Shown: positions 6,247 through 50,332, counted from the stretch's first letter. The stretch: DNA of 52,547 nt from Oscillospiraceae bacterium (GCA_028683785.1 JAQUHC010000001.1:1-52547); one strand, 5' to 3'. A program made the numbers and translations. The notes: generated by a model from the sequence alone, not told the origin.

Positions 6247-6717
6247 ATGGCTATAAGAAAAATAATAACCGAAGATGACCAAACTCTATACAAGGTGAGC
6301 CGTCCGGTAACCGAATTCAATGAAAGATTATGGCAGCTTATCGATGATATGAAGGATACCCTTAAAAAAGCAGATGGTGTGGGTCTTGCGGCACCTCAGG
6401 TCGGTGTTTTGCGCCGGTTATTCATTATTGATATGGGTGAAGACGGCGTTGTGGAGGTTATTAATCCTGAAATTATTGAAAAGAAGGGTAAGCAGGAGGA
6501 TGTTGAGGGTTGCTTATCCTGTCCTGGTGAATACGGTATAACCTGCCGCCCTAATTTTGTAAAGATAAAGGCTCAGGACAGATACGGAAAAGAGTATACT
6601 CTGGATGGTGAAGGTTTATCAGCGCGCTGTATCTGCCATGAGAATGACCATTTAGAAGGTATTATATTTAAAAAGCATGTGATTCGGATGCTTGACCCGG
6701 ATGAACTGATTGGTTAA
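6247..6717 (+). CDS. def: peptide deformylase
   Basis: GVGLAAPQVG, EGCLSCPG and HENDHLEG metal-binding motifs. The GAAAGG RBS favours the ATG at 6247 over 6238. Confidence 0.95.
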   Translation: MAIRKIITEDDQTLYKVSRPVTEFNERLWQLIDDMKDTLKKADGVGLAAPQVGVLRRLFIIDMGEDGVVEVINPEIIEKKGKQEDVEGCLSCPGEYGITCRPNFVKIKAQDRYGKEYTLDGEGLSARCICHENDHLEGIIFKKHVIRMLDPDELIG

Positions 6718-14856: not shown

Positions 14857-14949
14857 ATGAAGGTAGTAGTGGTAAAAAGCCCTAAGATTATCGGGGGGGT
14901 ACTTCGTAAAATATTCGGAATAAAAAAACAATATTACATAGAACATTGA
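14857..14949 (+). CDS. spoVM: stage V sporulation protein M-like 30-aa peptide
   Basis: GGAGGAG RBS lies 6 nt upstream. MKVVVVKSPKIIGGVLRKIFGIKKQYYIEH aligns with B. subtilis SpoVM MKFYTIKLPKFLGGIVRAMLGSFRKD, with MK, K7, PK, GG, R17 and G21 conserved. It sits downstream of thiN, as in Bacillus. Confidence 0.7.
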   Translation: MKVVVVKSPKIIGGVLRKIFGIKKQYYIEH

Positions 14950-14963
14950 TTAGTACCAAACAA

Positions 14964-15055
14964 TACTAATTTAAAATAAACATATAGAAATATCATAATA
15001 ATAAGAAGATACATATTGACTTTGATATTATTTATGTTTATAAATTAAATCAGTA
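14964..15055 (+). repeat. AT-rich hairpin repeat, copy A (MITE-like family with TACTAA...TTAGTA ends)
   Basis: tactaatttaaaataaacatatagaaatatcataata...gactttgatattatttatgtttataaattaaatcagta. It is near-identical to copy B at 17982-18071. The two arms are reverse-complementary. Confidence 0.85.
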
Positions 15056-17886: not shown

Positions 17887-17924
17887 AAAAACCGCCGTGA
17901 ACTATAATTCTCGGCGGTTTTCTT
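17887..17924 (+). terminator. rho-independent terminator of ligA
   Basis: The stem aaaaaccgccg pairs with cggcggtttt and is followed by a T-rich run. Confidence 0.8.
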
Positions 17925-17981
17925 ATGCTTATCACGCTTAATGAGATTGGTATTAGCCATCGGTTGAGTTTATGCTGCTTA

Positions 17982-18071
17982 TACTAATTTAAAATAAATA
18001 TATAGAAATATCATAATAAGAAGATATACAACGGACTTGGATATTATCTATGTTTATAAATTAAATTAGTA
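17982..18071 (+). mobile_element. AT-rich hairpin repeat, copy B (MITE-like), flanked by a perfect TTA/TTA duplication
   Basis: TTA at 17979-17981 and again at 18072-18074 flank TACTAATTT...AAATTAGTA. The right arm contains the last codons and the stop of the minus-strand gene 18061-18771. Confidence 0.75.
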
Positions 18072-18771
18072 TTACAACCATCATGTTGGGATATATCTCA
18101 TTTAATAAATCATCAGGATAATGCTCATCAAGAAATTTCTCAATACTGTTTGTGGGTGAAACACCAATCCGCCTTCTGCTTTGCCTTTCCAATGCCATGG
18201 CGGATATAAGCATATTGATCAACATAAAAATGCTTAAAACAACGGTCAATATCTTATTTATATATTTGGGTATACGGTCAATAAGTGAAGAAAGTCTCGG
18301 ATATATTTCTTTTACCCATATCAGCCCGAGCAACCCCCAGATAAAAGAATACATTATGTTTGTACGACCGTTAAAATTATATTGTGTATGGCTGTATTCC
18401 CAAGAAACCGTGCCAAATGCGAGTTCCTGACAAAAACTGCACAAATATTCAAATGCGCCGCCGATAACCGCACTCCCGAGAAAAATCCAGAGATCCCGCT
18501 TGTTCCTTAACCGCCTGAGACAAATGGTCAACAAAGCCGCCCCAACTCCATAAACAGGGTTAAACGGTCCGTATATTACTCCGACACGGCTTTCATATCG
18601 GCCCCGCATGATTATGCAGTACAGTGTTTCAAAAACGACGCCGATAAAACATCCGATGAGAAAGATCCAAAACAGCTTTGAATAGTTTAATTTATCGGTT
18701 GCTTTTTGCCGGTATTTGTTTTTGTTTTCCTTGACAAAAACCGGTTTACTCATTTTCATTTCTTTTTGCAT
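18061..18771 (-). CDS. multi-pass membrane protein of the putative ABC-transporter type IV (CmpB/DUF1113-like) family
   Basis: FWIFLIGCFIGVVFETLYC...GVIYGPFNPVYGVGAALL pattern. AAGGTGG RBS sits ahead of the ATG at 18771. The C-terminal ILI* is encoded by repeat copy B. Confidence 0.65.
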   Translation of the reverse strand: MQKEMKMSKPVFVKENKNKYRQKATDKLNYSKLFWIFLIGCFIGVVFETLYCIIMRGRYESRVGVIYGPFNPVYGVGAALLTICLRRLRNKRDLWIFLGSAVIGGAFEYLCSFCQELAFGTVSWEYSHTQYNFNGRTNIMYSFIWGLLGLIWVKEIYPRLSSLIDRIPKYINKILTVVLSIFMLINMLISAMALERQSRRRIGVSPTNSIEKFLDEHYPDDLLNEIYPNMMVVILI

Positions 18772-27375: not shown

Positions 27376-27572
27376 TACTAATTTATACTAAATCCAACTA
27401 TAACTATTCCATAATTATCGCTCATGGCGCGTTCTTCCTATACTAATTTAAATTAGTATTAGGAACGCATCGCTCTATTCTGGAATGTTTTAGAATGGAT
27501 TTAGTATTAATTATAAACATGGATAATATCCAAGTTTATTATGATATTTTTATATATTATTTTTAATTAGTA
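27376..27572 (-). mobile_element. AT-rich hairpin repeat, copy C (reverse orientation, 15-bp internal deletion), split by a nested 121-bp insertion
   Basis: Segments 27376-27385 and 27510-27572, when joined, align end-to-end with the reverse complement of copy B. The right end overlaps the stop codon of the HPr-like gene. Confidence 0.75.
27386..27506. mobile_element. 121-bp palindromic element nested inside copy C, flanked by a TTA/TTA duplication
   Basis: Perfect 11-bp terminal inverted repeats, TACTAAATCCA and TGGATTTAGTA. The arms show imperfect complementarity throughout. The centre is a perfect 20-bp palindrome, ATACTAATTTAAATTAGTAT (27440-27459). TTA lies at 27383-27385 and 27507-27509. 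Confidence 0.7.
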
Positions 27573-27841
27573 TCAGAATCGGTTCCGTAAAGGTTTAGGC
27601 GGAAAAGCCTGCTTTCATCTTCGGGGTCGCTGCAGACGACGGTTGCTTCGCCGACATTGCCCCAGTCAACCGTACTTGACAGCGCAAGGAGTTGGGTAAG
27701 CCTGCTCTTGAGATTGAGGACGTCCCCCTCGGATGTTTTAAGTAACACTTCGCCTTTTGCGGTGGATGCAAATTCGATCAGCTTGTTGAATTCGAAATTG
27801 TGAATGGTAAAACCGGCCATATAAATCGCTCCTTTCAACAT
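27563..27841 (-). CDS. divergent HPr-like (PTS phosphocarrier fold) small protein
   Basis: TIHNFEFNKLIEFAS aligns with the HPr block GIHARPATMLVQTAS, VLNLKS with the Ser46 region KVNLKS, and GEATVVCSDPEDE with G.E.T....G.DE. An ATG at 27820 has the better RBS (AAAGGAG) but would remove strand 1. Confidence 0.45.
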   Translation of the reverse strand: MLKGAIYMAGFTIHNFEFNKLIEFASTAKGEVLLKTSEGDVLNLKSRLTQLLALSSTVDWGNVGEATVVCSDPEDESRLFRLNLYGTDSDTN

Positions 27842-29790: not shown

Positions 29791-29827
29791 TTTATAATAT
29801 AAATGAACTAAAGAATGGAGAATTTTT

Positions 29828-39337: not shown

Positions 39338-39760
39338 ATGAGGATTTTTGCGGTTGATTTGGGCAAGGTGAGGACAGGGTTGGCAGTTTCCGATCAAACC
39401 GGATCTATCGCGGTGCCTGCCGGAACGGTAGTCCAGCGTGATATAAAAAAGCTGGTTTTACAAGTGTCCGACGAGGCAAAAAAACAAAAAGCCGATTTAA
39501 TTATTGTGGGACATCCCCGAAACATGGACGGTTCTTGCGGAGAAAGCGCCCATTTCGCTGAGAATTTTGCCATTGAGCTTGAAAAGGAAAGCGGAATACC
39601 CATTAAGCTCTGGGATGAGCGCATGACCACCATGTCCGCTATTGGAATATTAAACGAGACAAACACCCGTGGAAAAAAGCGAAAAACGGTTATTGACACG
39701 GTTGCTGCAACAATAATATTACAGGATTATCTTGACTCGATTAATAATAATCAATTATAA
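39338..39760 (+). CDS. ruvX: putative pre-16S rRNA nuclease / Holliday junction resolvase-like YqgF
   Basis: MRIFAVDLGKVRTGLAVSD N-terminus, then IIVGHPRNMDGS and DERMTT motifs. Confidence 0.9.
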   Translation: MRIFAVDLGKVRTGLAVSDQTGSIAVPAGTVVQRDIKKLVLQVSDEAKKQKADLIIVGHPRNMDGSCGESAHFAENFAIELEKESGIPIKLWDERMTTMSAIGILNETNTRGKKRKTVIDTVAATIILQDYLDSINNNQL

Positions 39761-39843
39761 AAGCCGATAAAACGGAGTGACGCGTTCTAAATAATAATTA
39801 TATTGTAGCTTTTATTTGAGATTAGTATAAGAGATATTTTATA

Positions 39844-46399: not shown

Positions 46400-46666
46400 T
46401 AATGCAATAAACGCATTGATAGAGAGAGTACCTCGTGTTTTTTCGTATAAGAGAAGGTTGTCATAGGCTGAAAGCAATCTGCGAAAAAGGCGGGAGAAGT
46501 TCACTCCGGAGCGGTAGGGCTGAAAATTTAGTAGGCTCTGACGGGTGACGCCGTTAAATGTCTTAAAAGTGTTTATTTATGCATATTGTTTTGCATACGA
46601 TGAAAATCAGGGTGGTACCGCGGAGGAATGACCTTCGTCCCTTTTATGGGGACGGGGGTATTTTTA
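46400..46666 (+). promoter_or_regulatory. T-box riboswitch leader, Phe-specific (UUC specifier)
   Basis: Stem I AGAGAGAGTA at 46421-46430. Specifier context GAAG-TTC-A, with TTC at 46500-46502. T-box sequence AAAATCAGGGTGGTACCGCGG at 46603-46623. The terminator ccttcgtccc / gggacggggg followed by a T-run lies at 46632-46666. Confidence 0.9.
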
Positions 46667-50243: not shown

Positions 50244-50332
50244 TACTGATTTAATATTAATATATAGAAATATCTTTATATAAGTTATATAATAGGCTTA
50301 GGTATTATCTATGTTTACAAATCAAATTAGTA
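50244..50332 (+). repeat. AT-rich hairpin repeat, copy D (diverged centre)
   Basis: The 5' 32 nt and the 3' 33 nt or so match copy B with a few mismatches. The central loop region differs. The flanks are ATA and TTA. Confidence 0.8.

Follow-up and report, generated by a model that had tools for sequence, protein, structure and literature searches.

How did the last codons of a bacterial membrane-protein gene come to lie inside a dispersed repeat? The question is raised by a 52,547-nt stretch of DNA from an Oscillospiraceae bacterium (GCA_028683785.1, JAQUHC010000001.1:1-52547; hereafter, the window), in which a minus-strand gene of the Pfam family PF06541 runs into a repeat copy, designated copy B, with TTA on either side. 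An earlier note on this DNA, made from the sequence alone, had proposed that the repeat is an insertion that duplicated its TTA target and exchanged the end of the gene for its own codons. We hold with high confidence that a 90-bp MITE inserted at this position, duplicated TTA and remade the end of the PF06541 gene. The relevant features of the window are collected in Table 1.

Table 1. Positions in the window of the repeat copies, the genes that they alter and associated features (rc, reverse complement)
Feature	Position	Strand	Description
Copy A	14964-15055		92 bp, 89% identical to copy B; flanks CAA/TCC
G+C-rich hairpin between ligA and the membrane-protein gene	17887-17924		A-run and T-run flanks; read by eye
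Stranded relic of the ancestral 3' end	17953-17978	-	with A17979, SSINSTDG and stop TAA (rc 17953-17955)
Left copy of the TTA target-site duplication	17979-17981		read from the sequence; orthologous empty sites with one TAA/TTA
MITE copy B	17982-18071		90 bp, 17% G+C, non-coding; tips TACTAATTT...AAATTAGTA
Right copy of the TTA duplication	18072-18074		overlaps the gene's Val and Ile codons
PF06541 (ABC_trans_CmpB / 'putative ABC-transporter type IV') membrane-protein gene	18061-18771	-	Pfam; 236 aa
Copy X	27376-27572	reverse orientation	short relative of A/B/D; flanks TGA/TCA; two nested insertions
Element Y	27386-27506		121 bp, tips TACTAAATCC...GGATTTAGTA; inside X; flanks TTA/TTA
Termini-only mini element	27441-27458		18 bp, TACTAATTTAAATTAGTA; inside Y; flanks CTA/TTA
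Small conserved gene	27563-27820	-	85 aa, no Pfam match; last residues and stop from copy X
Degenerate remnant, probably of a related element	39759-39827		right end ...TTTGAGATTAGTA, then TAA; weak, partial similarity
Copy D	50244-50332		89 bp, 83% identical to copy B; flanks ATA/TTA

The direct flanking of copy B by TTA was borne out at the level of single bases. Translation of the minus strand from 18061 to 18090 gives PNMMVVILI*, and the last three codons (ILI) and the stop TAA (rc 18061-18063) lie inside the repeat and are therefore supplied by its arm, as had been claimed. The minus strand from 17953 to 17979 translates as SSINSTDG*, and when copy B and one TTA are taken out, the gene ends in ...YPNMMVVSSINSTDG* and the window DNA reads ATGATGGTTGTAAGCAGCATAAACTCAACCGATGGCTAA. 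This reconstruction recovers the predicted frame ...NMMVV-SSINSTDG-stop, and the proposed swap of eight ancestral C-terminal codons for three element codons is correct; only the ancestral stop, which the earlier note had placed at rc 17954-17956, was one base off. The relic of the ancestral end is now untranslated. The hairpin between ligA and the membrane-protein gene is probably a shared bidirectional terminator that stayed intact after the insertion, and a consensus scan did not list it, as its loop exceeds 8 nt. An Rfam match to BSnc120 on the terminator region was far below threshold and was discounted. The only Rfam family found in the window was a T-box leader upstream of PheS/PheT (46407-46645, RF00230, 120.6 bits), which is kept in a sister species (L031 1897-2133); nothing was found on the elements or on the G+C-rich core of the sister species' MITEs described below.

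Copy B has the anatomy of a MITE. It is small and non-coding, with stops in every frame from either end, and its G+C content contrasts with about 44% for the window. Counting the adjacent A/T, its terminal 12 nt (ATACTAATTTAA) are perfectly inverted, the same tips recur on copies A, D, X and Y (short inverted termini of the form TACTRAT...ATYAGTA), and the predicted fold is a long hairpin (-17 kcal/mol, z about -3.7). The two-ended terminal pattern was matched three times in the window compared with 0 in 100 shuffles, and a 13-nt terminus was matched 13 times compared with a shuffled mean of 3.5 and a maximum of 9. The copies are dispersed in unrelated contexts, at four loci of the window, with further copies nested within them. 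Six genome-contig and two viral-contig matches of the two-ended pattern were attributed to chance, as their interiors and taxa are unrelated; the flanks of the two viral-contig matches are not T-N-A.

Evidence for an insertion comes from the orthologous loci, which share the gene order UDG, EndoIII, small CmpB, CmpB and then convergent LigA. The nearest homologues from other organisms have 72-75% protein identity; all of the 44 closest extend past YPNMMVV, and none of these 44 ends in VVILI. In the sister species (L001 and L028; 80-85% nucleotide identity locally), the site reads GGTGG-TAA-ATGAAATTAACTCAACCGA on the gene strand, and the orthologue (ATGATGGTGGTAAATGAAATTAACTCAACCGAATCAAGTAAAAGGTGA) ends in ...VVNEINSTESSKR*. 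The earlier note had proposed looking for an SSINSTDG-like tail in orthologues, and INST is indeed common to the sister tail and the reconstructed tail of the window (AACTCAACCGA at the DNA level), the relic aligning codon by codon with the sister's NEINSTES... (I-N-S-T, then D versus E). In a more distant relative (L005), the site is GGTGG-TAA-GCGAAAGCTAA, which reads ATGATGGTGGTAAGCGAAAGCTAA and ends in ...VVSES*, and another genome (L004) is also without the element and has one TAA at the site. At both syntenic uninterrupted sites, which belong to other species (the nearest with about 80% nucleotide identity over the gene) and not to strains polymorphic for the insertion, a single TAA (TTA on the plus strand) occupies the position of TTA-element-TTA in the window, in support of the target-site duplication that had been proposed. 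Neither the sister species nor L005 has copy B. BLAST alignments of the sister species with the window end exactly at the element borders of copies B, X and D; at copy B, the alignment halts at position 18072, the first base beyond the element. Because the relatives hold one TAA at the exact insertion point, the lineage of the window gained a 93-bp insertion (90 + 3) at the end of the PF06541 gene.

Presence and absence by themselves give no direction, and these comparisons are made at the level of species; the element might instead be ancestral here and have been cleanly lost from the sister lineages, with VVILI as the older ending and the longer tails as secondary. However, the successive outgroups (L001/L028, then L005), as well as L004, all lack the element and show a single TAA in its place, the 44 nearest homologues in other organisms all extend past VV, and the stranded DNA of the window is still an in-frame homologue of the sister tail. 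Repeated precise excision, each time including one copy of the duplication, is also far less parsimonious than one insertion. We regard such a loss as very improbable, and the gain of copy B in the window's lineage is the reading that we follow below.

The insertions A, B, D and X/Y occur at identical positions in three more conspecific assemblies (GCA_041859895.1 with a 237-kb contig, GCA_028704865.1 and SRR28826804) and are therefore fixed in the species, as far as the four assemblies represent it, whereas the sister species is without all of them. The exchange of the C-terminal tail was probably neutral, since the tail beyond YPNMMVV varies freely in length and sequence among homologues. 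The sister species has an element of its own near this gene: a 63-bp element (TACCAATCTCAA...TTGAGACTGGTA; L001 1944-2012) with TAA/TAA flanks lies just upstream of the gene's start, where the window holds 7 nt.

The other copies in the window were compared with the sister species in the same manner. The PheT-IreB spacer, which contains copy D, measures 195 nt in the window and 102 nt in the sister species (L031-33), a difference of 93. The site reads GAC-TTA-TAAAC in the sister and GGC-ATA[D]TTA-TTAAC in the window; as the empty site is TTA, the target of copy D was TTA, and the left copy has mutated since. At the site of copy X, the sister has 2 nt and the window 202 nt, which fits 198 + 3 after alignment. 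Element Y, a different element with the same tips, sits within copy X, 10 nt from one of its ends, and X without Y and one TTA is the sequence expected from A/B/D. The predicted RNA fold of Y is a strong hairpin (-40 kcal/mol, z -8.1). The mini element within Y, together with the flanking A/T, is a 20-bp perfect palindrome, so that the window contains a nest of three levels: the 18-bp mini element within Y within X. Copy A shows no duplication; the sister is without it, and the length difference is 113 nt rather than 93 plus or minus 2. Given this difference and a terminus-like GATTAGTA at 14948-14955, 8 nt to its left, copy A appears to have a complex history, and the site suggests an older, mostly deleted insertion, which would explain the missing duplication. 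The sequence at 39759-39827 is probably what is left of a related element, with a core resembling the sister's Y-like elements. In the conspecific 237-kb contig, followed for about 10 kb beyond either edge of the window (about 20 kb in all), no further copies of A/B/D came to light. The internal pattern ATATARAAATATC-N(14-40)-TATTATYYATGTTTAYAA had 0 matches in the genome-contig and metagenome-contig collections; neither of these includes the A/B/D subfamily or the window's species. Three small 'genes' are called in the conspecific loci, of which a 43-aa call (L023 8955-9086) overlaps copy D, a 30-aa call (L014 13823-13915) overlaps copy A and a 47-aa call (L022 10740-10883) lies in the TPK-YunB spacer just upstream of A; the two calls overlapping copies D and A are probably annotation artefacts caused by the repeat.

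These filled and empty sites also bear on where the element ends. Correia and RUP elements duplicate TA, and all copies in the window read ATA/CTRAT...ATYAG/TAT, with TA on each side of the core; on this ground, the repeat could be an IS630/Tc1-mariner-type MITE resembling RUP or Correia, with a TA duplication and true ends CTAATTT...AAATTAG. However, removal of the core and one TA from copy B leaves GTTGTAATATAAGC, which is 5 nt longer than GTGGTAAGC / GTGGTAAAT and disrupts the frame in which the conserved INST tail is otherwise read. The insertion of Y in X, compared with the paralogues, gives the same contradiction, and the difference of 93 nt in the spacer of copy D equals 89-90 + 3. The empty sites fit the element plus 3 nt rather than the core plus 2 nt. 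Because of the 5 extra nucleotides and the broken frame, we reject the TA duplication, which is extremely unlikely, and retain the 90-bp element with its TTA duplication.

Other small insertions tipped with TACTR...YAGTA occur in the sister species where the window has an empty site, among them the 101-bp element Z with TTA/TTA flanks and others with TAA/TAA or TCA/TCA flanks. A related family, a 156-bp MITE with termini TACTGYTCTCAAGTAAAA and a G+C-rich palindromic core, is present at at least 81 loci in the sister's metagenome (JGI 3300014206, Ga0172377; L034-L113, L031 and L018); it was collected by a metagenome scan with the long terminus of one subfamily, and nearly all of the 81 loci come from one metagenome. 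The flanks of this family are T-N-A in 103 of 103 cases (TAA 49, TTA 39, TCA 8 and TGA 7), and 34 of the 40 complete copies have identical 3-bp duplications (TTA 18, TAA 13 and TGA 3). In the window, the flanks are perfect TTA/TTA at B and Y, match at two of three positions at D, X and the mini element, and do not match at A, so that within the A/B/D subfamily the duplication is perfect only at B; taken together with the related family, the catalogue of flanks favours the consistent 3-bp duplication on which the earlier note had staked its reading. Given the 103 T-N-A flanks and 34 identical duplications, these comparisons of sequence settle a 3-bp T-N-A footprint for the TACT...AGTA elements. 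A 3-bp T-N-A duplication with TACT...AGTA tips is the same sequence as a 1-bp N duplication with ATACT...AGTAT tips in a T-N-A target.

The sister family also includes termini-only copies of 47 bp with T-N-A flanks (L039, L055, L081 and L084), analogous to the 18-bp mini element of the window, and mosaic elements with differing terminal modules around common cores, both of which may be the expected products of internal deletion and gap repair after cut-and-paste transposition. A second kind of sister insertion (L018 3874-4034) has GGTCRYCTCTAAAAA-type inverted ends around the same G+C-rich core; its duplication is ambiguous, with TAA and one extra A compared with the window's empty site at 29794/29795. 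An extra 227 nt upstream of lepA in L017 (GCA_028706415.1), which consists of an N run and duplicated sequence (6402-6502), was set aside as a scaffolding artefact.

Two further alternatives can be weighed against these flanks. In AT-rich DNA, three nucleotides will match by chance in a few per cent of cases, and the TTA match and the alternative frame could on that account be coincidental, the repeat having originated at this position as a regulatory or structural sequence. Against this, the alignment breaks exactly at the element borders, the same element stands in unrelated contexts and in nested copies, and T-N-A is found at 103/103 related-family flanks; coincidence is effectively refuted, with a vanishingly small chance of being correct. 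The repeat is, on the other hand, a short palindrome, rich in AT and mostly intergenic, a duplication is missing at copy A and no DDE partner was found, all of which would suit a REP/BIME- or PATE-like palindrome spread without target duplication by an HUH enzyme (IS200/IS605 or RAYT). Yet the filled sites of B, D and Z have two T-N-A copies where the empty sites have one, identical duplications occur in 34/40 copies of the related family, and the inverted repeats extend symmetrically to the very tips, instead of the asymmetric subterminal hairpins of such palindromes. With a duplication present and symmetric ends, an HUH origin is highly improbable. The anatomy fits a non-autonomous DDE transposon that may have been moved in trans with a 3-nt staggered cut.

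The PF06541 gene is not the only one whose end was altered. The small conserved gene that takes its last residues and stop from copy X ends in ..GTDS-DTN* in the window compared with ..GTDSK* in the sister orthologue. The ends of A/B/D have stops in all three frames within 1-12 codons at both ends (TAC TAA / CTA ATT TAA / ACT AAT TTA AAA TAA), and an insertion in the last codons of a gene costs just a short tail swap for this reason. Of 87 ends in the related family, 15 adjoin a reading frame of 80 codons or more without a stop before the duplication, although some of these frames may be spurious; the stop is the duplication itself (TAA or TGA) in 5 of the 15 and the element's own TAA, 16 nt further in, in 8. 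The simplest reading of the gene-end insertions is a T-N-A, AT-rich target choice combined with purifying selection against insertions further upstream.

Searches for a transposase-encoding element bounded by these termini covered the window, about 20 kb of additional sequence from the same species, about 250 kb of sister contigs, plasmids and viral contigs, and found none. An autonomous relative sharing the termini was likewise not found in L014-L033 and L034-L113, in addition to the window and the plasmid and viral collections. BLAST of copy B and the sister MITE against plasmids gave no match. An all-against-all comparison of open reading frames in the 250 kb of sister contigs revealed no repeated protein, and hence no insertion-sequence copies are present there. 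Larger elements between sister-family ends (874 bp, 778 bp and 3.2 kb) were considered as autonomous partners and rejected, as they contain passenger genes only: a small protein, an ArsR-like regulator with a ferredoxin-like protein, and a PBP1-like protein, each between two MITEs. A few kb past the end of the window, a conspecific contig (L023 12382-18739; JBFLFZ010000001.1) encodes a group II intron RT (RVT_1 + GIIM), an ISL3 transposase and a UPF0236-type protein; TACT termini were found on none of these three neighbours.

From these data, the following sequence of events can be proposed. A transposase supplied in trans would recognise the short inverted termini and cut with a 3-nt stagger at a T-N-A target, which for copy B would be TTA on the plus strand, i.e. 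the TAA spanning codons GTA and AGC of the membrane-protein gene. The enzyme would join the element to the cut ends, and gap repair would double TTA. The interrupted reading frame closes after three element-encoded residues (ILI), because every frame entering either end of the element meets a stop within a few codons, and the ancestral eight-codon tail SSINSTDG with its stop is left stranded downstream. The insertion is later than the split from the sister species and is fixed in all four available conspecific assemblies. Our best guess is that the mobilising enzyme would be a DDE transposase with a 3-nt stagger, possibly IS5-group/PIF-Harbinger-like.

The locus thus provides a fully reconstructed case of a bacterial MITE remodelling gene 3' ends, with two cases in one 52-kb window, to which the related family adds 8 candidates, open frames of 80 codons or more that are closed by the element's TAA. 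In uncultured Oscillospiraceae, the elements apparently form a modular and as yet undescribed MITE superfamily whose footprint is strictly T-N-A; one of its subfamilies has 81 or more loci in a single metagenome. In practical terms, they break contigs, change C-termini in annotated MAGs and give rise to spurious small gene calls, such as the 43-aa call over copy D. The conceptual addition is small, since MITEs, T-W-A/T-N-A footprints and MITE-driven frame changes are all known and the event is an ordinary one for its class; prokaryotic MITEs that land in coding genes and alter the product have already been documented (PMC10969869, review).

Among known systems, the Rickettsia palindromic elements (RPEs) and intragenic ERIC/BOX are comparable in that small palindromic repeats occur in coding genes and change the product. 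RPEs, however, add an in-frame internal peptide, whereas copy B truncates the frame, which stops after three element codons instead of being translated through. Of such frame-truncating insertions, only those in the last few codons survive.

The CACTA/En-Spm (CMC) elements have tips CACTR...YAGTG and a 3-bp duplication. The tips TACTR...YAGTA and the 3-bp duplication of the present elements resemble them, at four of five nucleotides in the tip, a likeness that may mean nothing, and CACTA elements differ in being large and eukaryotic and are not known to follow a T-N-A target rule. We consider it unlikely, though conceivable, that the TACTR...YAGTA / T-N-A elements of an uncultured Oscillospiraceae lineage constitute a modular MITE superfamily that is mobilised by an undescribed transposase outside the IS5 group (e.g. 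a bacterial relative of the eukaryotic superfamily with CACTA-like tips) and has a selected 'safe landing' at gene 3' ends. If this were true, the T-N-A target, which includes the stops TAA and TGA, and the stop-rich termini would have been selected in a gene-dense genome; both features can also be read as a by-product of AT-richness and purifying selection.

The suggestion of an IS5-group or Harbinger-type enzyme in the earlier note is reasonable, since the IS1031 group of IS5 has a three-nucleotide target (PMC2516522) and PIF/Harbinger elements duplicate T-W-A (PMC4482050). The IS5 groups with 3-nt targets (IS1031, possibly IS427/ISL2) are similar to the proposed source of mobility in being bacterial DDE insertion sequences related to PIF/Harbinger. 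T-N-A is the target consensus for these groups, and the ends of IS5-family elements start with GA or GG, so that TACT tips would be atypical of IS5. Membership of the TACT elements in IS5 cannot be claimed, and because no transposase partner was found, the link to IS5/Harbinger is one that we infer. Tourist-like and other PIF-Harbinger elements share with the present elements a 3-bp T-W-A duplication at AT-rich targets, a small non-coding body, short inverted termini, many copies and a frequent location near gene ends; TAA and TTA make up 88 of the 103 related-family flanks, and the 3-bp duplication itself is present, as TTA at copy B. The termini of PIF-Harbinger elements usually begin with G, not TACT, the host here is bacterial (Oscillospiraceae), and TCA and TGA are also used, so that the target is T-N-A and not a strict T-W-A. 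On the whole, the repeat belongs to an apparently undescribed MITE family of a well-known kind.
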